Source: Jimgerdemannia flammicorona (Eukaryota). From it: a stretch of 38,635 nt of DNA. Below the pieces are notes generated by a model. The model saw only the letters and a program-made list of their open reading frames with translations. It did no database searches and was not told where the DNA came from. Numbering within the stretch: the first letter of the stretch is position 1; every line of letters starts with the position of its first letter. The translations under genes were made by a program, and so were the position numbers. Shown piece after piece: positions 1 to 37,723 of this stretch. The stretch covers positions 1 through 38,635 of the forward strand of contig RBNJ01000158.1 in NCBI GenBank assembly GCA_003990765.1. The letters are read 5' to 3'.

Positions 1-9
1 AAAAAAAAA
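1..9 (+). other. A-tract truncating the inverted PLE copy; probable poly(A) tail of an element lying left of the window
   Basis: Similarity to the reverse complement of the forward copy stops at position 7 (aaagacaataag = rc of cttattgtcttt, ending 6307). The As further left do not match the forward copy. Confidence 0.45.
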
Positions 10-1361
10 GACAATAAGATCATCAATATACCAGAGGAACTTTAGCCCGGCAGCAACGGCTCGGCTGAGCAAATGATCAGACGCTTGCAAGGCACGTAAC
101 TCATGAGCAAAACCAATAAGATTGGTAAGATCTGGAGCACAATTAGTGCCCATAGCAATACCAGTCACAGAGCAGAAGGAACCGATGGTGGATATGAACG
201 TCGTATGAGTCATGACTATGCGGACAAGGCCGAGAATGGCTTCAAGTGGCAAAGAGCCAGGGGGGAAGGCCACCATCGACAAAAAGGTAAGACAGTCGAT
301 ACACTCATCTAATGTGATCCTGGTGTAGAAGGCAGTGAAATCTCCAGTAGCGACGTAAGAGCAATCTGACACATCAAGGTAATCCGATCGAATCAATTGA
401 AGCAGTTCTAACATATCACGTAGAGGTGAATAACGCGAATAACCCACATTATGGTGCAGATGGGCTGACCACAGATGGAGAAAGTGAGATAGGAAACGCG
501 AAATCTCGGTCGTGGGAGAGTTGAATGCACCAACGATAGGGCGCCATGCCACGCAAGCCCCTTTGTGTACCTTGGGCAGAGCATGAAACATGGGTAGCTT
601 ACAATTGTTAGGCTCTATGAGGTGTTCCCAAATCAGCATACAATTATGATCGCCGATGCAGAACTCGAGTAGACCAAGCAGGTCAAGCCTCACTGATTCC
701 TTAACATTATCAATCATAGAGGGATCATTCACGTACGTAGGATCGTGAAGGAGGGACCGAAGACCATCGAGATATAGAGCATGCAGTATAACGGCGAACT
801 CCAGATTCTTGTCAGTAAGACAGACAGTAAAGTCATCATGAGTATGGACGCCTTTAAGAAGACATCGGAACTTCTTCGGTACAAGCGTGCCGGACACATT
901 CGTCGTGGGTCGGATAGCTTGATTCAAAGCGGCACTCATATGGAGCATAATTTGCATATTTTCCATACAGTGTGGTGGTCACCATTTCGATGGCACCCAG
1001 GTGGAGATCTCCGGGACGTCATCAGAATTACCCATAGAGGTCCAGAAGGTGGCAAGGTAGAGACGCCGTTGGAACAATGACAATGAAATTGGGTCAATGG
1101 TGCTGTTCATCAACACCGACCCGGGGAGAACAAACTTAGGGCCAAAGTTCAGCATATATGTGAGCTCGGGGGTAAGCCAAGGCAGAGGTATATCAGTAAC
1201 AAAGCCCTCCTCGGTAAATATCCGAAACCGAGGAACGAAAAACTGACTTAATCGGGAACCGGGAAGAGAAGACACAAAGGCAAAATCCTCAATTGGTGTC
1301 GAGGCCGCTACTCCATGTGGAATGGGGACATCGGGGCCAAACCATGCTGCCGGGAAGTCAT
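7..1361 (-). pseudogene. PLE reverse transcriptase, inverted copy, truncated after the catalytic YIDD motif
   Basis: Reads LNFGPKFVLP, HALPKVHKG..WRPIVG, TGIAMGTNCAP and YIDDLIVF on the - strand. Confidence 0.9.
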
Positions 1362-1385
1362 ATAAGACCTCCAGGCTGGGGACCT

Positions 1386-2546
1386 CTAGTTTTTTGATGC
1401 TAGAGGGCAGACATCGCTGGCATTATGCCAGACGATATGACATTTAGCAGCAGTACACTTGTTGCACTGTAGTATAAACGCCCTGGCGGCACTCTTAGAC
1501 AAGCGGCTCGAAGTCGACGAGCGGCTGGTCCCAGTAGAAGCAGAAGAAACGGACGGGGAAGGTGAAGCCTTGCATGCTCGCTTGACCCCTTTTACAGAAC
1601 CCTCTGTCACAGCGGGGGCTAGGGGGCAAGGACCCTGGTGGGTCTTCGTAGGCACACCAAGGCGTCCAGAACAGCTACGGCAGTTCGGCGCAACGGAGGC
1701 CGAGGTCACCTTCACCTCCTTCATCTTTTCTGCAGCCCCCGCAGGCACGGCGGTAGAGGTTAGGGGGGTGGGGATGCTCTTTTTCGGTCAGGCAGAACCA
1801 GCGGCAGCAGAGGCAAATGTGCATTTGGCACCTGGAGTAGCGATTTCGGAGCGCTTCCCAAGCTCCTCGACCACGGCTTTGCGGGCAGCGGCGGAAATCC
1901 CATCTTGCAGGGAGGAGGATGCGGAGACTGTTGGGCAGACAGCAGCAGCAGCAGCTTTAGCAGTGGTGGCGGCGGCCAGACGGCGAGACTGACGCACGAC
2001 AATGTCAAAACCATGGAACAGAAACAAGTTTGTCTTGGCTCGGTCGGTGGCAGCAAGGGTAGCGATATTCTTGCTAACCCCTTGAGTGATATCAACGGAC
2101 ACACCAAAAAACTGGTAAGCATCAGAAGAACCACCCATGGCCTTGTCGATTTTAGCACGCTGGTCCTTAGCATGCTGGGTGGCGGCTTCTTGATCAGAAA
2201 CAGCAGCCTCGATCGCGGCAGTGGCACAGCGCTTAGCTTCTGCTGAAGCAGTAGTAAGGGCGGCATCATGCTGCTCCTCAGGTAGGAGAGCGATGGTAGC
2301 GGCAACCTTCTTGGAAGGAGTAAACCTCCAATCGGCAACCTGGGCCTGTAAAAAATTGGTGTGGCATTCCTTCGCGGCAGCGACCTCAAGGGCAGAAAGC
2401 ACTCCGGTGCAAGCAGCATGGAAGTAAGCAGGGACCTCGGCAGACGCAGCAGCGACATAGGCTGCAAGGTTGTTGAACTCTGCCAAATCGGTGAAGGAAG
2501 CTTTGGGGACGGCAGTATCGCCATCTACATTCATATTATCTGTCAT
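1386..2546 (-). pseudogene. PLE ORF1, inverted copy (Ala-rich helical N-terminus, two Cys/His knuckles), internal TGA at 1788-1790
   Basis: ORFs 1788..2546 and 1386..1748 are in one frame and mirror 3767..4927. Confidence 0.8.
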
Positions 2547-3056
2547 GTTGTGTATTATAAAACGAGTAGATAATAGCGGAAGAGTTTAGAGCGAGATGTG
2601 ATACTGTTATGGCGGATATGAAGGTCAGCAGTAAAAGGTCAAGCAGTTGGAAACAAAAAGCTTATGTGAATTTTCACGATAGAACAGAAAGTGGAATAAA
2701 GTGTTTTCCGAAGTAAGGTGCAATAGATCTGCAACCCACCCTCAGTACCACAATACATGGTGGTCTTTATTCATTTTGAGAAACAAAGTTCGGGTAAACA
2801 AAGACACGGATCTAACCCCATAATTCCGGAATCGGATAGGTGCATAAGTACCCGGACCTTGCCCTGATCCAAATAAAAGTCTGAATCAGGCTTCGTTGAT
2901 CTACACATGTGACGGGCCATTAAAAAACTGGATATAGTAACAATCAGGAAAAAGGTTCCAGTCATGTGATCTAATGTTACACAATCAGTAAACAATACCA
3001 AAAATGGAACTAGACCAATGACCCATCACGTGTTGTCACGTAATTGTCACTTATAG

Positions 3057-3760
3057 GTTTAAAAATGTGAAAAATCGCTGGACAACCTTCGGCATGAGGC
3101 TCTAGGCCTGACGCCTGTGTACTTATGCTTCATGACACCTGTCTACCTCCACTCGCTTCGCTCACTCCGGTGCTGAGGCTCTACTCTGCTCCAGTCACGA
3201 GGCTCTAGACCTGATGCCTATGCCTTCGGGTGCTGATGATTTTTAGATTTTTAAACCTATAAGTGACAATCACATAACAACACGTGATGGGTCATTGGTC
3301 TAGTTCCGTTTTTGGCATTGTTTACTGATTGTGTAACATTAGATCACATGACCGGAACCTTTTTCTCAATTGTTATTATATCCGGTTTTTTAATGGCCTG
3401 TCACATATGTAGATCAACGAAGCCCGATTCAGACTTTTGTTTGAATCAGGGCAAGGTCCAGGTACTTATGCACCTATACGATTCCAGAATTATGGGGTTA
3501 GATCCATGTCTTTGTTTATCCGAACTTTGTTTCTCAAAATGAATAAAGACCACCGCGTATTGCGGTGCTGAGGGTGGGTTGCAGATCTATTGCACCTTGC
3601 TTCGGAAAACACTTTATTCCGCTTTCTGTTCCATCGTGAAAATTTACATAAGCTTTTCATTTTCAACTGCTTGACCTTTTACCGCTGACCTTCATATCTG
3701 CCGTAACAGTATCACATCTCGCTCTAAACTCTTCCGCTATTATCTACTTGTTTTATAATA
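3057..3760 (+). repeat. 5' pseudo-LTR (704 bp) of the PLE
   Basis: Direct repeat of 6962-7665, from gtttaaaaatg to ttttataata. Confidence 0.95.
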
Positions 3761-3766
3761 CACAAC

Positions 3767-4927
3767 ATGACAGATAATATGAATGTAGATGGCGATACTG
3801 CCATTCCCAAAGCTTCCTTCGTCGATTTGGTAGAGTTCGACAACCTTGCAGCCTATGTCGCTGCTGCGTCTGCCGAGGTCCCTGCTTACTTCCGTGCTGC
3901 TTGCACTGGAGTGCTTTCTGCCCTTGAGGTCACTGCCATGAAGGAACGCCATGCCGATTTTTTACGGGCCCAGGTTGCCGATTGGAGGTTTACTTCTTCC
4001 AAGAAGGTTGCTGCTACCATCGCCCTCCTACCTGAGGAGCAGCGTGATGCCGCCCTTACTACTGCTTCGGCAGAAGCTAAGCGTCATGCCACTGCCGCGA
4101 TTGAGGCTGCCGTTTCTGATCAAGAAGCCGCCGCCCAGCATACTAAGGACCAGCATGCTAAAATCAACAAGGCCATGGGTGGTTCTTCTGATGCTCATCA
4201 GTTTTTTGGTGTGTCCGTTGATATCACTCAAGGGGTTAGCAAGAATATCGCTACCCTTGCTGCCACCAACCAAGCCAAGACAAACTTGTTTCTGTTCCAT
4301 GGTTTTGACGTTGTCGTACGTCAGTCTCACCATCTGGCCGCCACCGCCGCTGCTAAAGCCACTGCTGCTGCTGTCCACCTGACAGTTCCCATGTCCTCCT
4401 CCCTGCAAGATGGGATTTCCGCCGCTGCCCACAAAGCCATGGTCAAGGAGCTTGGGAAGCACCCCGAAATCGCTACTCCGGATACCAAATGCATGTTTGC
4501 CTCTGCTGCCGCTGGTTCCGCCTGACCGAAAAAGAGCGTCCCCACCCCCCTACCCTCTACTGCCGTGCCTGCGGGGGCTGCGGGAAAGGTAAAGGAGGTG
4601 AAGGTGACCTCGGCCTCCATTGCGCCAAACTGCCGTAGCTGTTCTGGATGCCTTGGTGTGCCTACGAAGGCCCACCGGGGTCCTTGCCCCCTAGCCCCCG
4701 CTGTGACGGAGGGTTCTGTAAAAGGGGTCAAGCGAGTGCGCAAGACTTTGCCTTCTCCATCCGTTTCTTCTGCTTCTACTGGGACCAGCTGCTTGTCGAC
4801 TTTGAGCCGCTCGTCTAAGAGTGCCGCTAGGGCGTTTGTACCACAGTGCAACAAGTGTACTGCCACTAAACGTCATGTCATCTGGCATAATGCCAGCGAT
4901 GCCTGCTCTCTAGCATCAAAAAACTAG
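3767..4927 (+). pseudogene. PLE ORF1 (~386 codons): Ala-rich predicted coiled coil plus two atypical Cys/His knuckles; internal TGA at 4523-4525
   Basis: 3767..4525 and 4565..4927 share a frame. Motifs CRSC-x10-H-x3-C and CNKC-x9-H-x5-C are present in both copies. Confidence 0.8.
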
Positions 4928-4951
4928 AGGTCCCCAGCCCGGAGGTCTTAT

Positions 4952-6931
4952 ATGACTTCCCCGGCAGCATGGTTTGGCCCCGATGTCCCCATTCCATATG
5001 GGGTAGCAGCCTCGACACCAATTGAGGATTTTGCCTTCGTGTCTTCTCTTCCTGGTTCCCGATTAAGTCAGTTTTTCGTCCCTCGGTTTCGGATGTTTAC
5101 CGAGGAGGGCTTTGTTACCGATATACCTCCGCCTTGGCTTACCCCCGAGCTCACGTATATGCTGAACTTTGGTCCTAAGTTTGTTCTCCCTGGGTCGGCA
5201 TCGATGAACAGCACCATTGACCTGATTTCGTTGTCGTCGTTCCAACAGTATCTCGACCTTGCCACCTTCTGGACCTCTATGGGTAATCCTGACAACGTCC
5301 CAGAGATCTCCGCCTGGGTGCCATCGAAATGGCGACCGCCGTACTGTATGGAAAATATGCAAATTATGCTCCATATGAGTGCCGCTTTGAATCAAGCTGT
5401 CTGACCCATGACGAATGTATCTGGCGTGCTTGTACCGAAGAAGTTCCAACGTCTTCTTAAAGGCATCTGTACTCATGATGACTTTACTGTCTGTCTTACC
5501 GACAAGAATCTGGGGTTTGCCGTTATACCGCATGCTCTATATCTCGATGGTCTTCGGTCCCTCTTTCATGATCCTGCATACGTGAATGATCCCTCTATGA
5601 TTGATAACGTTAAGGAATCAGTGAGGCTTGATCTGCTTGGTCTACTCGAGTTCTGCATTGGCGATCATAATTGTATGCCGATTTGGGAATACCTCATGGA
5701 GCCTAACGATTGTAAGCTACCCATGTTTCATACTCTGCCCAAGGTATACAAAGGGGCTCGCATGGCATGGCGCCCTATCGTTGGTGCATTCAACTCTCCC
5801 ACAACCGAGATTTCACGTTTCCTATCTCACTTTCTTCATCTGTGGTTGGCCCATCTGCGCCATAATGTGGGTTATTCGCGTTATTCACCTCTATGTGATA
5901 CATTAGAACTGCTTCAATTGGTTCGATTGGATTACCTTGACGTGTCAGATTGCTCTTACGTCGCTACTGGAGATTTCGCCACCTTCTACACCAGGATCAC
6001 ATTAGATGAGTACATCAACTGCCTCACCTTTTTGTCAATAGTGGCCTTCCCCCCTGGCTCGTTGCCGCTTGAAGCCGTTCTCAGCCTTGTCCGCATAGTC
6101 ATGACTTGTACAATGTTCACATCTGCCATTGGTTCCTTCCGCTCTGTGACTAGTATTGCTATGGGCACTAATTGTGCTCCGGATCTTACCAATCTTGTTG
6201 GTTTTGCTCATGAGTTGCGCACCTTGCAAGCGCCTGATCATTTGCTCAGCCGAGCTGTCGCTGCCGGGCTAAAGTTCTGCCGGTATATTGATGATCTTAT
6301 TGTCTTTACGCCCACGATTATGGACTTGGCCTCAATCTTTGCTGCTGTGTACCCACCGCACCATTGTATCGAATGGGAAGTCTTATCCGCTGGACCGTGC
6401 CATTACTTAGACCTGGAAATCCGAGTCGCACCATTCCACACAGGCCGCTTTGCTAAGTTCTCGCGTAGTACTCAGTTTGTCGACTGGTTGAGTAATCATC
6501 CTAGGAAGACACTCCGTCTATACATTGTGAATGAAGCCTGCTGCCTTTCGTTACTCTGCTCATCTCACCGTAATTGGCTTGATGAGTGTCGGTCTTTGGC
6601 CGAATTCCTGGTTCACAGGAAAGGATACCCTATTGATGTTGTAACCACTTAATTGAGTTTGGTTGATTGGCTTGAGGTCTGAACTTCACTTCTCACCCCT
6701 CCCCTTATTTCCCACCCCCCTATCCCCCACTTCGCTTTTCCTCCCCCGTTGCTTGTCGTCCAATATGACACGGCCTGATGGCTACATCAACAGCCTGACA
6801 AGACTCTACATACCACTTTGCTTCGTTTTGGTTTCCCTGCGACCGCCCGATGACCAATCATCGCCCGGAAGAATGGTTTTACCATTCTTAACGCTGTCTC
6901 AAACACCAGCTTTACTTTAAGTCCTCCTTGA
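4952..6931 (+). pseudogene. Penelope-like reverse transcriptase without endonuclease domain, several C>T nonsense changes
   Basis: LNFGPKFVLP, TDKNLG, LPKV(H/Y)K..WRPIV...SPT, GDFATFYT, IAMGTNCAP, RYIDDL, YLDLEI, WLSNHP, RKGYP. The TGA at 5402 is CGA in the inverted copy. The frame continues past stops to PIIARKNG..SPP* at 6929-6931. Confidence 0.92.
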
Positions 6932-6961
6932 AGGCCGCACCGCCTGTACGTGCCGTGCGAT

Positions 6962-7665
6962 GTTTAAAAATGCAAAAAATCGCCGGACAACCTCCAGCGC
7001 GAGGCTCTAGGCCTAACGCCTGCGTACCTATGCTCTGTGACACCTGTCTACCTCCACTCGCTTCGCTCGCTCCGGTGCCAAGGCTCTACTCTGCTCCGGT
7101 CGTGAGGCTCTAGGCCTGATGCCTACGCCTTCGGGTGCTGACAATTTTTAGGTTTTTAAACCTATAAGTGACAATCATGTGACAACATGTGATGGGTCAT
7201 TGGTCTAGTTCCGTTTTTGGCATTGTTTACTGATTGTGTAACATTAGATCATGTGACCGGAACCTTTTTCCCAATTGTTACTATATCCGGTTTTTTAATG
7301 GCCCATCACATGTGTAGATCGACGAAGCCCAATTCAGACTTTTGTTTGGATCAGGGCAAGGTCTGGGTACTTATGCACCTATCCAATTCCGGAATTATGG
7401 GGTTAGGTCCGTGTCTTTGTTTACCCGAACTTTGTTTCTCAAAATGAATAAAGACCACTGCATATTGTGGTGCTGAGAGCGGGTTGCAGATCTATTGCAC
7501 CTTGCTTCAGAAAATACTTTATTCCGCTTTCTGTTCCATCGTGAAAATTCACATAAGCTTTTCATTTCCAACTGCTTGACCTTTTACCGCCGACCTTCAT
7601 ATCCGCCATAACAGTATCACATCTCGCTCTAAACTCTTTCGCTATTATCTACTCATTTTATAATA
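6962..7665 (+). repeat. 3' pseudo-LTR (704 bp) of the PLE, followed by poly(A)
   Basis: Direct repeat of 3057-3760; the A-run 7665-7676 joins Gypsy RNase H sequence. Confidence 0.95.
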
Positions 7666-7676
7666 AAAAAAAAAAG

Positions 7677-9160
7677 CTTTTGGGAAAGGTAGGCTACTGG
7701 ATGATCTTCTTGACTGAGTACTGCTCCAATAGCAATGTCAGAGGCATCTGTGGTCAGAGTGAATGGTCTGGTAGAGTCAGGTGCAATTAGCACTAGGGCC
7801 TTGGTAAGGAGTCTCTTGAGATGGTCCATAGCCAGGGTGCATTTGGGGGTCCATTCAGCTTTAATGTTCACTCCTTTGCGGGCCAGACTGGTTAATGGAG
7901 CTGCAATAGCAGAGTATTCTTGGATAAACCTTTGGTAATAACTGGCAATACTCAGAAAGTACTAGAGTAGCTTGAGGGTAGTAGTGATAGAGATATCCTT
8001 AAGGGCTGATACCTTTCGGGGGTTCACATTGATACCTTCAGCAGAGATAATATGTCCTAGATATTCAATCTGGTCTTGGTAAAACTTGCATTTGCTCATC
8101 TTGGTATAGAACTGGTGTTCTCGCAGGAGGATCAGTACTTATCTGAGATGGGTGTAGTGTAGCTCTACTGTCTCACTGTAGATTAGTATATCATCAATAT
8201 ACACAAGAACATAGATGTTGAGGAGTGGTCCAAAGATGTCATTCATCAGATACTAGAATGTTGCTGGTACATTGGTTAATCCAAAAGGCATAACTCAGAA
8301 CTGGTAGTGTCTAAACCATGTTCGAAAAGCTGTCTTTTCAATGTCCTTCTCATCAATGAGAATCTGGTAGTAGCTATTTCGCAAATCCAGTAGAGAAAAG
8401 GTCTTGGCCTTGAAGATTTGGTATAGCAACTCATCAATCCTGGGCAAGGCATACCAGTTCTTGATAGTGATCTTGTTGAGGGCTCTGTAGTCAATACACA
8501 TTCACAGAGAGCCATTCTTCTTCTTGATAAATAGAATGGGAGCTCCAAATAGAGAGTGGCTGGGTTCAATATATCCTTGGGCCAGTAGTTTGGTCAATTC
8601 AACCTTGAGGATCTTGGAATACATTTTGGAATTCTTCAAACAGTTCTTGAGCTTCTGTTGGAATTGGGCTGCTTGGAGCTTCAGTGACTTCTTGTACTGT
8701 ACAGATGAAGTAGGTGTTTCCCTTTTTTCGAGAGAGTCTCTTCATTTGAATGGCAGAGATGATTTTAATTCCTTGGTGGTTGGTACCTTCCTAGGGTATC
8801 AGGGTGATCTCTCTGCCTTCATGGGTCAGGTTAACCTCATTGGTTCTTCAGTTGATATCTGGGTTGTGCTGGGTCAACCAGGCTTTTCCTAAGATAATAT
8901 CTTATCCTGGAAGGTCTATAATGCTAAAATTCAACTTCTCTTGATATTTGCCAATTTTGAGCAAAAGGTCTTCACAGATCTTGGTCAATGGTGCAGTCTT
9001 TCCATCACCAAAGATAACACTTCTTTTCTCAGGAGTTGGTCTGCTTTGGGCTCTAATTCTCTTAGTAGTCTTGGTGCTGATGTAGTTTCCAGTAGCACTA
9101 CTATCAAGCAAGACATTGACATTTTGTCTGTGGACTTGCCCTGTGAACTTGATACAACTG
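7677..9160 (-). pseudogene. Gypsy A pol: aspartic protease, RT, RNase H (N-terminal part)
   Basis: Motifs as listed for element A; multiple stops and frameshifts; boundaries approximate. Confidence 0.9.
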
Positions 9161-9479
9161 TCCTCCTTCTTGATGGTATTGAGCTCTTCATCCTTATTGT
9201 TGTCCCAATTGCTGTCAGTCTCCTCGAAGTCAGTTTCTCTCCATCCTTCACAAGGAGGGTTGTCTTGTTTGGGTTCCTCAGTCTGTTGAGCTTGGCACTT
9301 CTCAGATTGAATTTTGAAAACTTTGGAGAGACATGCATGGCATTCACCAATATGTTCTATGCAGTACATTCAAATCGAATGAGGGCATCATCCACATAGT
9401 GCATAACCATCTACAATTCTCTTGTACCAGTTTTCATCATCTTCCTTCATGGTAGTAACCTTTTGACTGGGAGGTTTGT

Positions 9480-9880
9480 TGGTAGATCCAAACCCTTTCT
9501 TGCCACAATCTGTCTGGGAGAGTTTGGGGACTTCTTCAATGATGAGATCTTGACAGATTTCTTTAATAATTGCTTGGGCAATTCTTTGGCCTACTTTGAC
9601 TTCAAATGATATATCTCCAAAATTTCACAAGATGACATAGATTTCACTAGTAAATTCTTGGTCAACTACTCCTCCTCCTAGCCCAATGTTGAACTCTTTA
9701 GCTAGGCTGCTTCGCTCAGTAAGGCAGATGTATATACCTCTGGAAGCTTGCATTGCAATTCCTGTTCACACTGTAGCATTGATACTTGGTGGGATGGTGA
9801 GGTCTTGGCTACTGTAGAGGTCATATCCAGCATCAGTTGGGTGGGCCTTAGTGGAGATGGTAGCCTTGTACCATATCTTC
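9480..9880 (-). pseudogene. dut: dUTPase domain of Gypsy A, between nucleocapsid and protease
   Basis: KAHPTDAGYDLYS, TGIA, (R)SSLA, GGVVDQEFTSEI, GQRIAQ, GKKGFGST: all five trimeric dUTPase motifs in order. Confidence 0.9.
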
Positions 9881-9982
9881 TGTACTTTGATGACATTCTT
9901 GGGATTCTTCTTTCCTGGGCCTTCTCCAATAATAGTAATGTTCTGGTTACTAGGTTCACCTATTCTATTCTTCTTCTCAGGG

Positions 9983-11000
9983 CATCTGAATGAGATGTGT
10001 TCTGCCTTCTTACAGATGAAGCACAATCCTTTTTTGTGGAGCTGCTTCTTCTCATCCTCAGTGGGAGGTCTGGGTTCTCTGGGGTTTCACTGGTTCCTTT
10101 GATCATTCCTATGATCATATCTTTGGTCATTCCTTTGATCATTTCTCCTGGTAGAGTTTCTCCTATCTTGGTTATCTTTCTTGTATTCTTGATTTCGTGG
10201 AGCTTGTGCAGCAAGGATTTCACAAGCTCTTCTTTGTACTTGGGCAAAGCACCATGAGTAGTGGGGACATCCTTGGGAAAGACCTTGTTCCTTGATTTTC
10301 TGAGTGAGCCAGTCTGGTAGGGCTGCAAAAAGATGGTTGGCTCTGGTATCATTAATGGCCAAATTGTTCTCCTGATAGGTAAGTTCAACAGTTTTGAGAT
10401 AGGCATCCATTCTGGTGGCAAAGGTCTCTAGATCCTCTTTGCTATTCTTGTGGAACTTCATCTGAGTTAGTTTATTCCAAGTTTCTTGTATGTAGGCTGT
10501 ATTTCAGAATTTGGTCAGTAGCAAGGCCTTGAGTCCTGAGCCTGCTTCATAGTTATCCCAACCTGGTCTATTGTTGCCAGGTACTTGTCCATTGACTTGA
10601 GGGTGGGCTTCCCAGGTTACTGGGTGTTATTCTAAGATTCGCCAGAATTTGGCTGCTGTTCCAGTGAAGAATGTAGCTACTGTTTCTACTTATGCTGCTG
10701 ATGTGGCAAACAGCTGTTGAAGGGTGCTGTTCTGGTTGTTGGTGAACATTTCTATAGGTACTTAGTTGTCATTCCATTGATTTGCTCAATAGCCTGTATC
10801 AACTGCATTAATGAAGTTTTTGATATCGCTGTTTTTTCAACTGAATGTTGGAATTCGCAAGGTCTTGGTTGGTTTGTTCTGTTCAGCAATCTGCCCTACT
10901 ATCCCTGCTAGTGCTACTAGCTGGGTGGTCAGTGCTGTAATATTGGCATCTACCATTGTGTTGACTATTGGTGGTGGGCCTGTTGGGGTAGATTCTCCTG
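9983..11000 (-). pseudogene. Gypsy A gag with CCHC zinc knuckle
   Basis: CFICKKAEHISFRC at ~9983-10024; capsid-like segment EDLETFATRMDAY upstream; start not resolved. Confidence 0.75.
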
Positions 11001-11484
11001 AAGATTGTTCTGCTTGATGAGGTTGTGGTGCTATATGACTTGGAGTTACTTGATTCCCAGATATTAAGTCAAAGAGTCCTGTGAGAGAGGGTAAACCAAA
11101 CTTCTGTATAGGTGGCTGGGTTAGTTCTGGGGTCTGATCTTCTTGACCTGTGATTCCTTGGTAAATTCCTAGGCCTGCTGTTCCTTATTAGCTATCATCA
11201 GACTGGTAACTTGTAGAGTCTTTGTCTGACTCTCTTCTCTGATGAGATAGTGCATCCTCATACTGACTAGGTCCTTCAAAGAGGATATCAGTCTCTGGCT
11301 GGGTTGATGGGCCTGCTCCTTGTTCAGCAGTAGAGGATGGGTGGCCTGCTTGTTCATTCTCATACCTAGTTATAGTAGAGGTATAGTATACAACTAGTCT
11401 GTAGTAGAGGGAGGTCTTGGTTGAAGTATGATGATACCTGTCAGAGGCAATCTACTCGACAGCTGCTTCTCTTGCAGCAGGGGG

Positions 11485-12633
11485 TGTAATATAATCTAAA
11501 AAATCCTGAGTGGCTGCAGCAGTAGATTCTGGGGTCCTAGTGGTTCCAATGTATTCTCGGAGGAGTTCATAGAACCTACAGTGGCTAACAATATTCCTAA
11601 GTCCTGGAAGGTATGTCCTAAAGGCCTAGTATAGATCCTTGTAAGTCTGGTCAATTACAAGCTAATGGGTTCTTGGATCTGTAGTTTCCTGGTACCACCT
11701 GGTCCTAATGGCAAGGACTTCTCTAGCTCTGGTTTGGGGATCCACAGTTGGTTCTGGGGGTTACTCCTGTCCAAGGTTGGTCTTGTTTCAACTTCAGAAG
11801 TATATCTTTGGTGCCTTCTTGGCTGGTAATCTACTGCTACCAAGTTGTAATAACTTTCACTTCTACCCCTCTCTTATCCTTAGGATAATTAGGGAAGTGG
11901 ACTATTACTTAGGGACTTAGTACACAATGTGTACCAAGAAGCCTTTAGTTTGAGGAAGTGCTCACTTATAAGTAAGTTGTAGTAGCAGTACCTTCTATTT
12001 TAAAGGTCTTTTTCTTGTGCCCTATTTCAAGGGTCTTGTTCTTTGCTGTGCACAGATTGAATTTGCCTTGGAATTCAGGTTCAATGAGTTTACTTAAGTC
12101 TTTGGGGATTTATATACTGGTCTCAGTTCTGGCAGAAGTTAGCTAGGCTTCTGGAGTTTAGTTAGAAATACTAGAGTCACTTAGATATCATTACTAAGAC
12201 TCAGGGGAATGTATGTATGTGGGGGGGACTTGATTCTTGTATCAAGAACTGAACTAAAACTGCTTTATTTCAGATGGAAACTGGGGGGTATTTATACAAG
12301 TTGGTCTGCGATTTCTGACTAAGTATGAGTGACTAATTTGGTAACTATAATGAGGTTTGTGATCGTGACCTTTGTCAGATGGTTTTTGGTAAAGAATATC
12401 TTTGTGATCAGGACCTCAATTACTAGGCAATAATCAGCAGCTGTAGCAACTATTGCTGTAGTGCCAGTTGTTAGGGATAAGCTAAATATTGTTTTCCACA
12501 TCATTCATTTACATCATTCATCACTTGTTATTCATATGCTACACTCGATCATATGATGATGTCATCACTGGGTCATGTGATCATTTGTAATCGCTTGTCG
12601 CATTCCATCTATTCACTTATTCATTCTATTACA
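11485..12633 (-). repeat. 5' LTR of Gypsy A (~1149 bp)
   Basis: 7-bp terminal inverted repeat TGTAATA..TATTACA; TATAAATA and AATAAA on the - strand near 12260-12300; abrupt switch to element B pol at 12634. The partner LTR is not in the window. Confidence 0.7.
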
Positions 12634-21633: not shown

Positions 21634-22974
21634 TGTGACAAATCTAAACATATCACCTGAATTATAACTTAGCCAGATGATGTGAACACCCAGCATAGTA
21701 ACCAGCAACCATTGCTGCAGAAACTGTATAAATAGCCAGACTATCAGATAAGGTATATCTGTGCAGGACCTATACACCTGTGCCAGACCTGCATACTTGT
21801 ACTGGACCTATACAACTTGCCATAAGTAGCAAATCTATAGTTAGCCACATAGCAATCAGATAGCAACCAACTTGTATAAATTACTCTAGAGACAAGAGTA
21901 AATAAACCTCAGTCTGAAATACAAATACCAAAGAAGCTTCTAAAGATTGAGCATTGGTCTCCTTTTCACTCTAGTCTACTTTCTGATATAAAGCTGATTT
22001 TGTTACCAAGTTCAAGTGAAGAACTTCACTGCCTTTAGAATTATTAGTATGCTTGTCAGACTAAGCCTAAAGAACCTGCTGTTTAAGGAATAAGCTATAC
22101 TATTGGTATACTTACCAGACTAAGCCTGAAGAATCTGAGTTTGCTGCCAAGTTCGAGGAGAACTTTGCCACCATTTCTAAGTTATTCATTATATTCCCAG
22201 AAAGCTGTCTTGCTCAAGTCAGTTTCTGATACAACTTTGTAGTGATCTATTTGTATAAATAAAGCCAGTCTTTGATGCAACTTTGCCAAGAGATCCTTTC
22301 CAAGAAGCTGTTAGCACATTTCCCAGTTAAAGCTACTAATTCAGAAGAATCCACACCATCTGAGTTAATTCCCAGAGAACTCTACCAATTCAGGAAGAAT
22401 CCATAACAACCAAGTTATTCATTTGTTCCCAGTGAGCCTAGTACAGAAGAACCTATGCTATCTTCTATTTCCAGTGAGCCAAATTGAGTTATCTGTCAGA
22501 AATTACATATTTTTGGAAATCATCATACTATACAGAGATTGTCATATAGAGATCACCATTGTCTAAGAAGGAAAACTGCTAAATTAATAGACCATTATAT
22601 ATAAGAAATCCATACTACACAAAGATCATCATGCTACACAAGATCATTATACTCAGAGATTACATACTTTTAGAGACTGTTACCCAAGAAGGAAACTGCT
22701 CACACTATATATGAAATCCTACCAATTCCTAGTTGACCCAAAAAGGAAAGATACAAATTACCACTATATCTAAAGAACTGTCCCAATTAGGAAATCAATA
22801 TACAAATTGCTCATAGATATCCAGCTTTGACTATTATATGTACTACTAAATACTAAGAACCTCAAGAATCATAGAACATTTTGTTGCTTTTTAACAAAAG
22901 TAACTGGGGGCTCAAGCCAAACTACATCAACCCCCAACCTTATAATTTGTCTCCATTGAGCCAGGCATGTTATA
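21634..22974 (+). repeat. 5' LTR of Gypsy C (1341 bp)
   Basis: TGTGACAA...GTTATA, collinear with 36387-37723. Confidence 0.95.
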
Positions 22975-29313: not shown

Positions 29314-29460
29314 GGACTTCTTTTGCTCAAACCACTCAGAGCAAGCTAAGCCACACAGGCATCTTTTGGTAAAAGACAACATATTTTTAAGTTTTTATTT
29401 CAAACATACTGATGTATATCATGTGACAGGAGTCAACCTATAAGGCACAACAAGTTTTAA

Positions 29461-31350
29461 GAAAAACTGTCAAGTTTTGGTGATATAGCTAGTCAAGGTT
29501 TCTCTAGCTCTGAGTGTCTGGAGAGGAGGAGACCTGGTCTGGGTATTCCTAAGAGCTTTGCAGCTGCTGCAGGGGCTGGTGTGGCTGCAGGAGGGGCTGG
29601 TGGACAGAGGAGGTCTGGTGGGATTGAGGCCTAGCATACGGTGGTTAGGAATAGGAGGGCTGTAGCTAGGCCCATAGGGGTGGGCCAGGGGGGGCATAGT
29701 GTTGACAGGGGGAGGGGTCAGGTGATGAGTCAGGTGACAGGTCAGATGGCTGGCAGGGGACAGAGGTCTGGTGGTGTGATGCTAGAGACTGGTTCTTCTG
29801 TGGCTGGGCAGGTGGCTGGAGAGAGGACTGCTGGTGGTACAGCTGTGACTAGTGAGGTGACTACTGGTGTTTCTGGGACCAAAGGAAAGGTGACTCTGGC
29901 AGCAGGGACAGGCAAGTTGGTGGTGAGGCCTTTCTTCCACAAATCGGTATAAATATGAGTAATCTTGGTGAACTTTCTGGGATTGGTGATGTCAGCGAGA
30001 GAGGTTCTGAGGCTGGTGGGGGAGGAAGTGGCTGGGGCAGAATCTCTGAAGTTCATCTCTTTGACAAAGGCTGTGGAGATTGGATTCATGGAGGAGGATG
30101 TGATGGTGAAGGCACTGGAGAAAGGGATGACAGTCAAGAATGTCCATATTGGGATAGCAAGGTGTCTGAGGTGGGATCTATGTGCTGTTTGACTGATGGT
30201 AGAAGGATTGCCAACTCTGGGCAGACAGGAGATCAAGGAGATAGTAGTAGAGGCACTGGGTGGATATAGTGAGATGGTGGACTTCAGGTTCATGTTCTGG
30301 GAGGGTACTAAGTTAAGGAATGATAACTGCGAGATAATGCTGCAACTGGAAGGCAAGGAGGTGATGGGGCTAGGATATGACTGGCCTGAGGGGATTAGAA
30401 TTGGGGGGCAAGAGTGTAAGGTGTGGAGGAGGAAGGGAGTGGAACTGGAGGAGAAAGAGTTGGCAATTGCTCTGGAGGAGAGAGAGGCAGCCAAGGAGTT
30501 GTGAAAGAGGAAGTGGGAGGAGTATGCCAAGGATTGGGTCTGGATCCAGGCAGATGGCAAGTGGAAGAGGTGGAGGAAAAGAAACTGAGAGCATCTGCAG
30601 GTGGCCCTTCAAGGGGCAGCAGTGGAAGAGGAGGCAAGAGTAGAGGTGGCCAAGAATCAGATGGAAGGAGTGGAGATAGCAGAGGTTTCCTTCTCCCAGC
30701 TGGGTGGTGTAGAGAACTCAGTATATGTGCTGGTGAGAGGAAAGTGGGCAGACAAGGAGGAGGTTGGTGAAGAAGGCTTTGAGGTTGATAATGAAGTAGT
30801 GCCAGAGACTCAGGTGGAGGATACCTATATGGCTGGGGTAGCAAATGTACACTGGGAGTGCCCAGAAGCTGGTGAGGTAGTTTATTTGGAGAAGGTTGCA
30901 GAGGAGGATGAGCTGGTGGATGTGGCCTCTAATGTGTCAGTGGACAGGGAGCAATTGCAAGAGCTGAGCAGGACCCCCAGGCCTTCGACTCCCAGACCCC
31001 TGATAATGACAGTGGAGAGCTGGTATCAGGAAGTGCTTGTGGAGCTGGCAGAGGAAGACATCAAAGAGATGGACATATTTCAGAGTTCTCAGGAGGCATG
31101 GGAAGGATTTCTCAATGTAGCAATGCAGGGGCCTAAGCTGGTGATGGCAATAGTAGCCACTCTTCTGAATAATGAAGGATATGATGTTGATGAGAGCAGA
31201 ATGGCCGACATCAGGAAGATGGCAGCAGAAAGAGTGGACCTTTTCTGCAGCAGTGCAAATGGTGATCATATCTGGAGGGCAATTTGTAAAGACCAGTGAG
31301 AGATTATTAGAGAAAGGGCTGAGAAGGTGGTGGTGGTCCTAGCTGAGCTT
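29461..31350 (+). pseudogene. LINE ORF1 (SFAAAA motif, RRM-like middle, acidic C-terminal part)
   Basis: In-frame fragments 29641, 29965, 30196 and 30601 separated by stops; boundaries approximate. Confidence 0.7.
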
Positions 31351-31365
31351 TAAACAATTTCCTTG

Positions 31366-34300
31366 ATGATGAAGAACAGTCTACATATTTTATCAATCAA
31401 TGTCAATGGATTGCAGGATGGTATTAAGAGACAGCAGCTTTTCAGGTGGCTTAAAGTCAGGAGGTATGATGTGGTATTTCTTCAGGACATTTGGGCTTAT
31501 GGAGTATTAGACTATGAGATGTGGAATAAAGAATGGTATGGTGGAGTAGGTTGGAATAAGCAGGTGGGTATCTTGGTTAGTATAGGCAAAGGCGAGCTAG
31601 TGGATGTAGAGATCTATAGTAACAGATTGATTTGGAGAAGACTAAAAGGAGGGGCAGGTGATGGTTTGATAGTTGGATCAGTTTACCTCCCTGCAGTTGG
31701 CAGAGAGTGAAAGCAATGAGTTGAGAGATGGCAGGCATGGAATGGGTGGGAGGCAGTTGCTTTGGACATTTTGGGGGAAGACTTCAATATGGTGCATGAT
31801 AGAACATTAGATAGGTCTGATGGTGGAGCAGGAGTTGCAGTGTTCTCTGGACTTTCTCAATGGCTTCAGGTGGAGCAAGACATGGGTTTAGTGGATGGCA
31901 TTTGTCAATGATAAGGGGATAAGTTAGGGCCTTTTACCCAGTGGTATCCTGTTGGAACTGCCTTGGTTGGGATACGAATAGATTGGGTACTAGTGATAGA
32001 GTGCTGGGGCAATATACTGGATATGGCTGAGGTACACTGGTGCACTTGGTCTGATCACTGGGGAGTGGAGGTTTGCAGTAGATTCCAAGTGGTGGGCAGT
32101 GGTGGAGGGCACTGGCACCTCAATATAGTCTTACTCAGAAGGAAGAAGGAGAAGGACCATTTTGTGACAGTTGTGAGACTGGAAGTAATGCAATGGCAGA
32201 ATGAAGAGCAGTTGATAGTAGAATGGTGGGGCAAATTCAAACATCTGGCTGGTACTTACTGGCATGATGTTGGAGAAGTGGCTGAGAAGGAGCAGAAAGA
32301 CAAGGAAAGGAGAGTAGAGAAGGGGCTGAGATGGTGATTGAAGCTTTTGGAAGGGGGGAACTTATCTGGAGAGATATGCCACCAGTTGGCAGTAGAGGTG
32401 GCAGAGCTGCAGGTGGATTTAAGGGTATCTGAGACCAGGGTGGTATATGGCCTGCTGGCCAGACTGCGAGCTAGATGGTTGGAAGAAGGAGAGAGGCCAA
32501 CAAGATATCTGTCTGGTATTTTGAAGGCTAGAAGAGTATGGCATAGTTGGGCCTTGGTGTTGTGTAAAGATAGAGTCAAGGTCTCTGGGATTGCTGACAT
32601 ACTAGAGGAGGTATCTGGCCAATGGCAAGCTCTCTGGCAGGATGACAGGGAGCATGCTGAGGATACCAGGCTTGGAGAGAATGATAACAATATGGTAACT
32701 GATTGGCCAGTGACCATGATACCTAAGATAGGGGAGGCAGTCATGGGGGAGGTGTCTCTAGATGAAGTATTGGAGGTACTGAGAAAGACATAGACTGGTT
32801 TGTCTCCTGGGGAGGATGGATTGCCCTGGGAATTCTGGAAGGAGTTCAAGACAGAGTTTGGTGACTGGTTGGTAGAGATGGCTAATGCCATTCTGAAGGA
32901 GAGTAGTTGGATTAGCAATGGCTCCTTGGGACTAGTTTCTCTTCTATATAAAGAAAAGGGAGATAGACGAGTGTGGTATAATTGGCAACCTATCATACTG
33001 CTGAATGTGGATAGAAAATTAGTATCCAAGATTCTAGTAGAGAGGATGCAACAGTATGTTGGTGTACTTGTTGGGGAGGAGCAGCGAGGCTTTGTCAAGG
33101 GGAGGCAGATCAGAGATAGTACTGCTTGGGTGCAGAATGTCTTAGAGGGCTGTAGGAGCCAGCAGATTGATGGTCAGATGGTCTTTTTAGATCAAGAGAA
33201 AGCCTATGACAGAGTGTGGTGAAGCTACTTGGAGGCTGTTCTGAGGAGAGCAGGGTTCGGTGAAGTAGAGGCAGGGTAATTGATGGGCTTGATACAGGGA
33301 TACTGAGCAGTGGTAATAATGAATGAATGATGTAGACCAGAGTTTGCCTTGGGGTGTAGAGTACCAAAAGGGGACCCTCTCTCCCCCCTTCTCTATGTAC
33401 TTTCTCTAGAGCCTTTGCTGGTGTGACTGAAGGGGTGGCTTTCTGGACTGTGGATGGGAGATGTGGTCTGGCAGTTGGGTGTTTTTACAGATAACATAGT
33501 GGTAGGGTTGGGAAGTCAGGAGGATGTCGAAGTCCTACAGAAAGGAGTTGGACAGTATGAGAGGCTGGCAGGGGCTAAGTTGAATTGGGGCAAGTGCAAG
33601 ACAATGGAACTTGGTACTGGCCTGGGGGAACATGGACAATTCAGACAATTGGTAGCTACAGGGAGTGCTGTTCAGTATCTGGATATCTGGTTCTCAGTAT
33701 ATGGGACAGTTCTGCCAAAGGAGTGGTGGTGTGGATTGATTCAGAAGCTGGAAGGTGCACTGATGGGATGGTCAGGAAGGAACTTCTCTTTAGTGGGCAG
33801 GATAGTAGTTTTGAATATATATTGGCTGCCCAAACTGTGGTACCTCGGTTACCATCTGGATTTTCCAGAATGGGTGGTGCAGCAACTGAAGAAAATTATA
33901 GAAGGGTGGTTATGGCATGAGAGGTGTCTACAGATTGGGTGGGAAACTTTGGTGATGAGGACTTCTGATGGGGGCATGGGGCTGGTGGATTTCAGGTACT
34001 GGCTGAAGGTACTTAGGGGTTAGTGGGGGTGCCAAATACTGGAACTAGGTGAGAAAGGGTGGGGCAGACTGACCATGGACAATTGGGAGATCTGGTTCTG
34101 CTCAAGGAGTGAGGTGTGGAAGAATATGTGGGGCTTGCTTCAGGTTGGAAGTGTAGGGAGACTGCAGTTTAAGGGGTTCTGGTGGGGTATTGTAGAGGCC
34201 TGGCTGGCCATGGGGTTGGCAGGCCCAGAGATAGAGGTGGGTGAGAACCCTGAGCTAAAATGGTGGTGACTGAAAGACCTTCACATTTGTGGCCACAGTT

Positions 34301-35010
34301 TGAAGGAGTACTCTCTGGTTGGGTGATGGAGTGGATCAGGTCAGGCCCTCTGGAGAGATGGCCACCTGGTTGACAGAGAGTTGGTATTGGTGAAGACTGG
34401 GAGTGGGTTCAAATCTGGAATTGGAGAGCCTTGGTATACAAGATGGGTGCCTCTCAAGTACTGGATGGTTTGGTGGCGATTCTTGAGGCGCAATGTGATG
34501 CTGAGCTATTGGACAGGCTGGATGGAGATAGATGGCTGTCAGGACTGTAAGTAGTATAATGAGGTGGATAGAGGAATTGTTCAGATACCAGAATATGTTC
34601 TGGTGGCCTGCCCAGGTGTGGAAGGGTTTTGGCAGAGTTTGGAAGATTACTGGGGCCCAGAGAGACAGAGGGCAGAAGATCCAGCCAGTCTGGTGGCCAA
34701 GCACCAGCTAGTGGGGGAGATTGGTGATATCTGGAGTGGTCTAGGCTGAGTTTTGGAGGTCTGGGTCCTGATGGCAGTGCATTGGCAGTGGATTTTTGAA
34801 CAGAACCCATGGATGGAAATTGGAGAGATGGTGGAGCAGTGGAGGTGGCTTCTCCAGGAGGTGGTACAGGGGTGGTAGTACCAGGGGAAGCAACTTCAAC
34901 CAGGGGTCTTAAAAAAGGTACAGGACATTGTACAGCAGAGTCGAGGGTACTTGGTGTTAGATGATATGGGGTAAGATGGAAGGAAGGGGTTGGCTGAAGG
35001 AATCTACTAA
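31366..35010 (+). pseudogene. LINE ORF2: APE endonuclease, RT, C-terminal Cys motif
   Basis: SINVNGL, FLQD, SVYLPA, GEDFN, RIDW, SDH; SPGEDGL, WQPIILLN, QRGF, DQEKAYDRV, KGDPLSP, FTDN; CQDC...C. Confidence 0.93.
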
Positions 35011-35099
35011 GTGTATTATATGTTATTATGTGAGGTTCATAGTGGTTGTAGTTAGTTATTATTGTATTAGATAGTTCATAATAAAGGAGTCCAAGTGAC

Positions 35100-35167
<68 letters not shown>

Positions 35168-36386: not shown

Positions 36387-37723
36387 TGTGACAAACCCAA
36401 ACACATTACCAGAATTATAACTTAGCCAGATGATATGAATACTCAGTATAGTAACCAGTAATCATTGCTGTGGAAACTATATAAATAGCCAGACTACCAG
36501 ATAAGGTATATCTGTATAGGATCTATACACCTGTGCTGGATCTACACACTTGTACTAGACCTGCACAACTTACCATAAGTAGCAAATCTATAGTTAGCCA
36601 CATAGCAACCAGATAGCAACCAACTTGTATAAATTACCCCAGAGACAAGAGTAAATAAACCTCAGTCCAAAATACAAATACCAAAGAAGCCTCTAAAGAT
36701 TGAGCATTGGTCCCCTTTCCACTCTGGTCCACTTTTTGATATAAAGCTGATTTTGCTGCCAAGTTTAAGTGAAGAACTTTACTGTCTTTGGAATTATTGG
36801 TACACTTGCCAGACTAAGCCTGAAGAACCTGCTGCTTAAAGAATAAGCTATGCTATTGATATGCTTACCAGACTAAGTCTGAAGAATCCAAATTTGCTGC
36901 CAAGTTTAAGGAGAACTTTGCCACCATTTCTAAGTTATTTGCTGTATTCTCAGAAAGCCGCCTTGCTCAAGCTAGTTTCTGATACAACTTCACAGTAATC
37001 TATTTATGCAAATGAAGTCAGTCTTTGATACAACTTTATCAAGAGATCCTTTCCAAGAAGCTGCTAGCATATTTTCCAGTTGAAGCCACCGATTTAGAAG
37101 AATCTATGCCATCTGAGTTAATTTCTAGAGAACTCTGCCAATTCAGGAAGAATCTGTGACAACTGAGTTATTTGTTTATTCCCAGTGAGTCTGGTACAGA
37201 AGAACCTATGCCATCCTCTATTTCTAGTAAGCCAAATTGAGTTATCTGCCAGAAATTGCATACTTTTGGAAATCATCACACTATATAGAGATCATCATAC
37301 AGAGATCACTGTCACCCAAGAAGGAAAACTACTAAATTAACAGACCATCATATATAAGGAACCTGTGCTATATAAAGATCATTGCACTATACAAGATTGC
37401 TATATCCAGAGATTGTATACTTTTAGAGACCATTACCCAAGAAGAAAACCACTTGCACTATATACAAAATCCTACCAATTCCCAGTTGACTCAAGAAGAA
37501 AAGACACAAATCACTGCTACATCCAGAGAACCATCTCAATTAGAAAATTGACATACCAATCACTTGCAGATATCCAGCTTTAACTATTATACCACTAAAC
37601 ACCAAGAACCTCAGGAATCATAGAATATTTTGTTGCTTTTTAACAAAAGTAACTGGGGGCTTAAGCCAAACTACATCAATCCCCAACCTTATAATTTGCC
37701 TCCATTGAGCCAGGCACATTACA
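36387..37723 (+). repeat. 3' LTR of Gypsy C (1337 bp)
   Basis: TGTGACAA...ATTACA preceded by purine-rich GTGAGGGCTGA and followed by TSD ATAG. Confidence 0.95.

Follow-up and report, generated by a model that had tools for sequence, protein, structure and literature searches.

How does a retroelement that carries no endonuclease enter the interior of a chromosome? The question is raised by a contig of 38,635 nucleotides from Jimgerdemannia flammicorona (RBNJ01000158.1 of assembly GCA_003990765.1; the whole contig is called the window below), in which positions 3057-7675 hold a decayed Penelope-like element (PLE) made of a pseudo-long terminal repeat (pseudo-LTR), a body, a second pseudo-LTR and a tail of eleven A residues (A11). 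An original prediction, made from the letters of the window alone, described a 4.6-kb endonuclease-free PLE at an interstitial site, which would prime on T-rich nicks or breaks, or borrow in trans the endonuclease of a long interspersed nuclear element (LINE). We find that the element is one arm of a palindrome of about 9 kb, that this palindrome and not the 4.6-kb element is the unit of insertion, and that its very long or absent target duplications suggest RNA copying onto both ends of existing DNA breaks. The assembly contains 231 Mb in 35,354 contigs, which are denoted here by C and a number, the window being C158.

The insertion unit is a palindrome

When the window is compared with itself, 3057-3760 recurs at 6962-7665 with 91.3% identity, defining two direct pseudo-LTRs of 704 bp on the plus strand, and 3238-6307 recurs inverted at 3076-7 with 91.9% identity over 3071 columns. 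Positions 3057-7675 are the right arm of a head-to-head palindrome of ~9 kb, the left arm of which occupies 7-3076 on the minus strand. The left arm corresponds to 3238-6307 of the right arm and is without the first 180 nt of the pseudo-LTR; it holds open reading frame 1 (ORF1, 2546 to 1386) and the reverse transcriptase (RT) as far as its YIDD motif, and among the 42 observed arms it ranks first in closeness to the right arm. The centre is the pseudo-LTR "head" (3057-3256, plus strand), where an imperfect stem, 3057-3076 with 3238-3256, closes a loop containing two repeat units of ~80-100 nt. The decay of the PLE is chiefly by C>T and G>A changes at CpG. The original prediction had correctly recognized a PLE-type RT and an A tail, while overlooking the pseudo-LTRs, the inverted arm at 7-3076, the ORF1/ORF2 frameshift described below and a target duplication of 478 bp.

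This duplication becomes visible once the left arm is followed beyond the window. A later LINE-like insertion splits the arm, with its oligo(A) end at the contig break (1-9, plus strand), and the arm resumes on C12870 at element position 6291, a 17-bp duplication (element positions 6291-6307) lying around the insertion; we call it LINE-like since C12870:1-442 resembles flanks that run into LINE sequence. Of 35 arms compared with the right arm of the window, the one on C12870 is the closest (2.8% non-CpG difference, versus 4.1% for the next one). It ends in a 90-nt tail. Next comes a second copy of window 7675-8152, 97.5% identical, and beyond it the reading frame of the Gypsy RNase H carries on. 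The copy, at C12870 1909-2386, is the best non-self match of 40 scored among 1057 Gypsy candidates, the others reaching 92-94%, and the duplicated target comprises 476-478 bp of host Gypsy RT/RNase H (plus strand). At the right-hand junction the A11 tail occupies 7665-7675, one residue shorter than predicted, and is followed by GCTT. The AAGCTT that had been read across this junction owes its AA to the tail, the target itself reading GAGCTT; that the 3' end lies inside a Gypsy RNase H was right (RT_RNaseH_2, E 9e-19).

The same arrangement recurs across the genome. The best 40 of 247 RT matches examined are 88-100% identical and often form minus/plus pairs ~4.5 kb apart. Exact-pattern searches of the whole genome returned 55 centre junctions and 116 in-body head starts, a ratio of 1:2.1, with no match to the control patterns in either case, and 73 A-tailed 3' ends of the family were found. 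All 41 examined centres matched by pattern have the same fold point, namely the imperfect stem by which the 200-nt head of the pseudo-LTR is closed. Both arms reach ORF1 in 29 of them; two have an arm that consists of an A-tailed LTR and nothing more, one has an LTR that ends on the flank without a tail, and the remaining centres are cut or interrupted. It should be kept in mind that the loci were picked through RT or centre matches, which biases the shares of the different layouts. Tail-less tandem units occur at C720, C19187 and C4132.

One might suspect that such palindromes and their long duplications are artefacts of assembly, or results of later recombination between independent copies. 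The assembly is certainly fragmented, and its contigs break at PLE A tails (11 of 45 free ends have less than 60 nt of flank). However, the arms of a pair differ by 4-18% and the duplications by 1-8%, so that neither can be collapsed or re-used reads; a single exact centre is found, in either orientation, across subfamilies of different age; and the duplications adjoin both tails to the base. We give this explanation hardly any credence.

The paired arms come from one source, as judged by subfamily markers, of which 1659 are present in both arms and 103 in one arm, unlike cross-contig control pairs (5002 in both, 24110 in one). There is no mixed-subfamily pair among 35, and paired arms rank first as nearest relatives in 12 of 14 pairs. 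Among the four LTRs of nine palindromes, non-CpG splits fall 6 (3' versus 5'), 4 (arm versus arm) and 7 (cross). The head of a little-decayed copy folds as a rod (RNA z -4.9), and its minus-strand DNA folds at -48.7 against -32.1 +/- 3.0 kcal/mol.

A single folded-back cDNA could produce such pairs. One end of a break would prime a full-length cDNA, the 3' end of which would fold on the head stem; the RT would then copy the second arm, and the oligo(A) end of that arm would be captured by the other end of the break. This route, which is likewise independent of an endonuclease, accounts for arms that always belong to one subfamily and are mostly nearest relatives, and makes use of the strong hairpin in the minus-strand head; self-priming has been proposed for Penelope palindromes too, but on antisense RNA (PMC3846280). 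The tails speak against it. The tail of the headless arm, the second one to be made in such a scheme, is a prefix of the tail of the full-head arm in only 5 of 17 pairs, leaving 12 in which the tails are not mutual copies, and it is the longer of the two in 7 of 17, the pair of the window (tails of 10 and 90 nt) included. At C5137 the full-head arm consists of an A-tailed LTR only (~700 nt) and the opposite arm runs into ORF1; a short full-head arm with a longer opposite arm is not obtainable from one folded-back cDNA. An inverted copy of the first flank at the second ends was not seen by eye either. We therefore regard the single folded cDNA as unlikely, if still worth serious consideration, and favour priming at two ends, because in most pairs neither tail copies the other, and because of the arm lengths at C5137.

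Several further details of the head and of the palindromes are recorded here in their own right. On the minus (cDNA) strand, window 3146-3170 and 7051-7075 correspond in little-decayed copies to GAGCGAGCGAAGCGAGCGG, a mini-hairpin of the GCGAAGC type with tandem G.A pairs, the ladder of which was matched 119 times in the loci examined when CpG decay was allowed; mini-hairpins of this type are DNA-specific. The plus-strand head has a GCGCC-UUCG-GGUGC hairpin. The inner head repeat is present one, two or three times (C5955, C12712, C13682, C634), sometimes unequally between the 5' and 3' heads of one element. At six centres (C2487, C436, C2627, C5680, C4132, C23727) two stem bubbles that normally differ have been made identical, in either direction, as would happen if a heteroduplex stem at the joint were repaired. 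At C35:33610-47236 three arms, in tandem and inverted, lie within one 457-bp duplication, and the extra arm begins at head position 3084, right on the preceding A tail. Finally, a CCAAT box (minus strand) and several CACGTG boxes at 2990-3056 and 3257-3320 lie just downstream of the head and thereby directly upstream of the first base of the opposite arm, a possible promoter.

Target sites

Both outer ends could be read in 19 palindromes. Five of these have duplications abutting both tails, of 311, 457, 476-478, about 700 and 752 bp, and two more have longer duplications that are partly seen: about 2.8 kb (98%) at C1023 and at least 2.5 kb at C5772, the latter uncertain. In three others (C11, C2197, C722) roughly 4-14 nt have been deleted relative to paralogous empty sites. 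A short target duplication of 4-39 bp, with AT-only duplications excluded, was found in none of the 17 palindromes tested; C634 and C1470 (ends mis-parsed), C270 and C3297 (flank too short) and rows with a single free end were left out of this count. Such a spread, from small deletions to kilobase duplications, argues against an endonuclease of fixed stagger and would fit the use of existing 3' ends.

The same survey bears on the proposal that the PLE borrows the endonuclease of the L1-type LINE. The proposal has its attractions, for PLE 3' ends are A-tailed, LINEs with an AP-endonuclease domain are abundant, and several PLE copies lie in LINE sequence. Yet LINE insertions in this genome left duplications of 12-13, 15 and 17 bp (in one survey 2 of 9 LINE ends were resolvable), as against no short duplication in the PLE set. 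The outcomes of the two kinds of element differ, and borrowing from the LINE is largely refuted and to our minds very improbable. As to the alternative of T-rich nicks or breaks, resolved PLE junctions share only about 0-4 bases with the A tail and no common target motif was seen among the PLE sites; breaks are the most likely substrate, and T-rich nicks are not borne out.

Telomeres

Endonuclease-deficient PLEs are best known from telomeres, and whether this family could be telomeric was examined in several ways. The host repeat is TTAGGG (883 matches versus 5 for the control), with arrays at contig ends. No PLE or RT match was found in the 13 stretches with TTAGGG repeats, and none of the 34 element flanks of at least 60 nt contains two telomeric units, the shorter flanks being too close to contig ends to judge. 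Neither (TTAGGG)2 nor (CCCTAA)2 occurs in any element locus examined. Genome-wide, in no case is a 3' end of the family followed by (CCCTAA)2 within 30 nt, the orientation expected for attachment to telomeres, compared with the 73 A-tailed ends, or by (TTAGGG)2 in the opposite orientation. Within the limits of the assembly, the searches of repeats, flanks and 3' ends rule out a telomeric family, and the interstitial location predicted for the window copy extends to the family. As a separate observation, C52:1-1578 carries a telomere array interspersed with unique sequence and then a GC-rich ORF, possibly another telomere-associated retroelement, with no PLE RT match within 10 kb.

Proteins of the element and the endonuclease question

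The 5' pseudo-LTR (3057-3760) is joined to ORF1 without an A tail, and the start of ORF1 is directly reached from 42 of 87 distinct LTR ends. ORF1 (3767-4927, plus strand, ATG at 3767) has 386 codons in the family and stops at TAG 4925 in 39 of 39 arms; the window copy has one decay stop, at 4523, which is a minority state among the arms. Its product has an Ala-rich N-terminal half, a low-complexity middle and two Cys/His clusters. ORF2 (4919-6931, plus strand) encodes an N-terminal region, a DKN motif, the RT core and the thumb. Its stop, TGA 6929-6931, is present in all 38 arms that cover the position, as the original prediction had it for the window copy, in which ORF2 is broken by five more stops (5402, 6650, 6680, 6776, 6851), all of them in the minority among the arms. 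Counted by codon position (1/2/3), shared transversions number 28/25/57 in ORF1 and 8/12/52 in ORF2, a pattern from which we infer that both frames evolved under purifying selection. The 3' pseudo-LTR follows at 6962-7665, with its head at 6962-7161. The A tail and the terminal TATAATA together create an AATAAA, which the end of the 5' pseudo-LTR does not have.

Immediately before the ORF1 stop (4918-4927, plus strand) lies the heptamer A-AAA-AAC, and AAAAAACTAG (A-AAA-AAC-TAG) is kept in 85 of a wider set of 89 arms. It fits the slippery-site consensus, and the Terminon paper is said to describe frameshifts in Athena. In other arms ORF2 is in the -1 frame; in the window copy the two ORFs share a frame because of a 1-nt insertion near 4962 that is peculiar to it. 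The 90 nt 3' of the heptamer fold at -34.8 kcal/mol, a value given with no shuffle control. To judge by these features, the heptamer is a putative programmed -1 frameshift site leading from ORF1 to ORF2.

The endonuclease is missing from the family, and not lost in the window copy alone. Naturally open ORF2 copies of 679 codons exist, and in three of them Pfam scans read up to E 1 gave RVT_1 or nothing, with no GIY-YIG; the same scans of three open ORF1 copies showed no nuclease family, and neither ORF contains a GIY..YIG-like or CxC motif. The same scan does pick up GIY-YIG in 18 of 133 distant relatives. ORF2 ends ~80 residues past the thumb in all 38 arms. The common stop and the Pfam-negative open copies rule out a loss private to the window copy, and what had been predicted from a single copy, no GIY-YIG at either end, holds for the family as a whole.

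The RT itself is that of a PLE. An alignment-based model of ORF2 (mean predicted local distance difference test, pLDDT, 82; a single-sequence model, at 37, was unusable) has 60 unstructured residues at its start, ends shortly after the thumb and has telomerase reverse transcriptase (TERT) structures as its five best Foldseek folds in the PDB (E 1e-9 to 2e-8, TM about 0.4). In a feature search ORF2 matched RT clusters with PF26215/PF28514 at 0.96-0.97; there was no match by sequence in the PDB, and a viral fold library returned generic polymerases only. The closest relatives, P0001 (44%), P0006, P0007 and P0008, show no GIY-YIG; P0001 and P0006 end where ORF2 ends, P0007 and P0008 are cut short, and P0008 is a protein of Racocetra fulgida. 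The phylogeny proposed in the original prediction was carried out on 135 of 138 rows, with long branches and a midpoint root. It groups the query with P0001 (99) and with P0006/7/8/135 (95); none of the 18 GIY-YIG rows falls with them, and neither does a 47-row endonuclease-less group with RPIVPSHSW, presumably Coprina-like. The tree contains none of the named reference sequences, Coprina and Athena included. Metagenome scans with P0006 and P0001 gave no loci. Among the relatives scanned, P0084 has a PLE-type RT fused to an Ulp1 protease domain, and P0067 one fused to immunoglobulin domains, possibly a gene-calling chimera. Rfam scans of the window and of a less decayed copy found no hammerhead or other ribozyme, and CTGANGA is absent from both strands of the one LTR examined.

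A nuclease of a kind that is not recognized, whether in ORF1 or supplied by the host or by an element other than the LINE, might instead cut the two strands far apart. ORF1 could be its source: it has two Cys/His clusters, and a homolog was not found in a search that scored 8000 candidates (best feature-search score 0.82; against the N-termini of long endonuclease-less RTs it scored 1.8 bits, below the best shuffle at 2.1). The genome also has 37 GIY-YIG matches, several per contig (for example on C509, C6559, C1998 and C24471), and long duplications have a precedent in the rotifer element R9, for which a target duplication of 126 bp has reportedly been found. But target outcomes that span a 14-nt deletion to a duplication of about 2.8 kb, with no common motif seen, sit badly with a dedicated nuclease. 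Moreover, at the 15 GIY-YIG loci fetched (GC 37-50%) no PLE RT or element lies within about 1.5 kb, and the Pfam scans above show no nuclease family. We consider such a nuclease improbable.

A model of insertion and its weaknesses

On balance the evidence leans slightly towards an autonomous, though by now decayed, family that inserts at pre-existing breaks, the 3' ends on either side serving as primers at the A tail and the resulting pair of cDNAs being joined by way of the 200-nt terminal hairpin. In this model a 4.6-kb A-tailed RNA, running from the head to the A tail, would give ORF1 and, by -1 frameshifting, an ORF1-RT protein; the frames and their conservation are seen directly in the copies. 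Where the chromosome is broken, or its ends overlap, the 3'-OH ends on both sides would anneal by 0-4 bases to the A tail, each priming a cDNA from the same source element, and leave the two outward-facing tails that are observed. The cDNAs would come together at the 200-nt head by pairing between the 3' end of one and the internal stem copy of the other, each serving as template for its partner; the exact centre, in either orientation, is the junction expected from such pairing. Flush ends would lose a few bases, whereas overlapping ends (arising, for example, from repair synthesis or converging replication) would be filled in and appear as the duplications of 0.3-2.8 kb. Were the second cDNA to join at the 3' head, the product would be 5 kb long and have a short inverted LTR, which is the canonical Penelope layout. 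There is some precedent for parts of this scheme: for a PLE protein that does carry an endonuclease, extension of both strands has been seen in vitro and dimerisation is predicted (PMC11167929), and L1 insertion independent of its endonuclease is associated with target deletions (PMC1920257).

It is worth pointing out what weighs against this model. All of the evidence comes from a fragmented assembly, and the left end of the palindrome in the window depends on the joining of two contigs. Nine of the 19 palindromes have no assignable target outcome; a 3.6-kb duplication predicted at C1563 was not found in a comparison of 4189 x 1435 nt. A long duplication was not found at C4132 either. Separately primed cDNAs could differ in subfamily, yet none of the 35 pairs is mixed, for which a single template is the simpler explanation. 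The arguments from the tails and from C5137 are weakened because A tails mutate after insertion and because LTR-LTR recombination can yield arms that consist of an LTR only. Finally, ORF1, which has no detected homolog, may contain a nuclease of unrecognized type.

Neighbouring features of the window

The Gypsy LTR retrotransposon that received the palindrome is itself decayed and occupies approximately 7676-12582 on the minus strand, with RNase H, RT, protease, dUTPase and zinc knuckle domains in Pfam. A CLC channel gene (PF00654) with short introns starts near 16.6 kb, in agreement with the predicted distance of about 9 kb between the element and a host gene. The L1-type LINE used for comparison lies at 29315-35165 (plus strand); its tail is A63, and its target duplication measures 12-13 bp. 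Two direct repeats of 1334 bp (86% identity) at 21634-22967 and 36387-37716 are probably the LTRs of a second Gypsy element, into which this LINE was inserted.

Implications and comparison with known Penelope-like elements

The origin of the inverted repeats of PLEs, and the source of primers for non-telomeric PLEs without an endonuclease, have been named as open questions (PMC8557442, PMC3846280, PMC11167929). The present family offers 55 or more palindromes of a stereotyped form, with a centre that is exact to the base and no confounding nuclease, its target sites separate break capture from nuclease cleavage, and it defines a small system (an RT, a 200-nt head and an A tail) that is amenable to a test in vitro. 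We would go further only tentatively, and with more doubt than conviction: the family may represent a separate lineage of fungal PLEs that has relatives in at least one glomeromycete and depends on two-ended break capture, A-tail priming and a dedicated hairpin of single-stranded DNA for joining, and the 0.3-2.8-kb duplications would reflect how far the ends under repair or replication had overlapped. On this view what functions is the palindrome as a whole, since each arm would receive its promoter from the inverted LTR of its partner. If this is true, the inverted-repeat layout of Penelope would be a property of the RT and the head, older than the fusion to GIY-YIG. A TERT-like RT that heals internal break ends would also bear on the origins of telomerase.

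An endonuclease-less interstitial PLE is not new as such, because PLE-X (Chara, Selaginella) and MjPLE01 (shrimp) are endonuclease-less PLEs away from telomeres, the Chara families being genome-wide, and the authors state that such elements need other sources of 3'-OH (PMC8557442). PLE-X has a CxC motif and hammerheads, neither of which was found in the present family, and the passages on PLE-X and MjPLE01 in that paper do not mention palindromic dimers or long duplications. Nor is the N-terminal GIY-YIG and/or CxC before the RT that marks Naiad, Chlamys and PLE-X present here. Our literature search, with Repbase, supplements and subscription papers outside its scope, found no report of dispersed full-length palindromic PLE dimers or of PLE duplications of 0.3-2.8 kb, and excerpts of two further papers (PMC7943196, PMC13443276) contain none. 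Endonuclease-independent L1 (PMC1920257) resembles the family in having no endonuclease signature, in its target deletions and in being read as break repair. For L1, however, this is a rare by-product, whereas here it is apparently the sole route, and its products have an intact 3' end on either side, a centre that is always the same and long duplications.

The closest likeness in layout is to Penelope/Poseidon. The canonical unit, as in Pen2a_Av of Adineta vaga (PMC3846280) and PAc (PMC11167929), has two direct pseudo-LTRs and an adjacent head-to-head inverted copy without its 5' part, as found here; the inverted copy overlaps the direct repeat by 15 bp in those elements and by about 20 bp in this family, and a short palindrome at the junction and a TERT-like RT are common to both. 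The differences are equally plain. Penelope/Poseidon, like Neptune, Nematis and Hydra, has a C-terminal GIY-YIG in one ORF and duplications of 8-10 bp (PMC3846280), whereas this family has no GIY-YIG, two ORFs with a slippery site, and duplications of 0.3-2.8 kb or small deletions. In place of the 30-40-bp ORF "tail" there is an A tail, the inverted copy is usually full length, giving the 9-kb palindrome, and no hammerhead was found. The layout of direct and inverted pseudo-LTRs is described as typical of endonuclease-bearing PLEs (PMC3846280, PMC8557442), and fungal endonuclease-deficient PLEs are stated not to share the Penelope organisation (PMC3846280). Contrary to that statement, the Penelope layout does not require GIY-YIG.

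With Coprina and Athena the family shares an RT without endonuclease, an ORF1-like region that is separate or fused, and an existing 3'-OH as the proposed mode of priming; direct repeats flank Coprina-1_Alen as they do here. Those elements attach to telomeres through repeats and hammerheads (PMC8557442, PMC13159263, PMC6431247), unlike the dozens of dispersed interstitial palindromes of this family, which have no reverse-complement telomeric repeat at the 3' end and no hammerhead. It is nonetheless a PLE, with an RT closest to TERT, direct and inverted pseudo-LTRs and partial tandems; the hammerhead ribozyme in the pseudo-LTR, not found here, is common in PLEs and not universal. On the features tested the element falls in neither group: it is Coprina-like in using existing ends and Penelope-like in layout.

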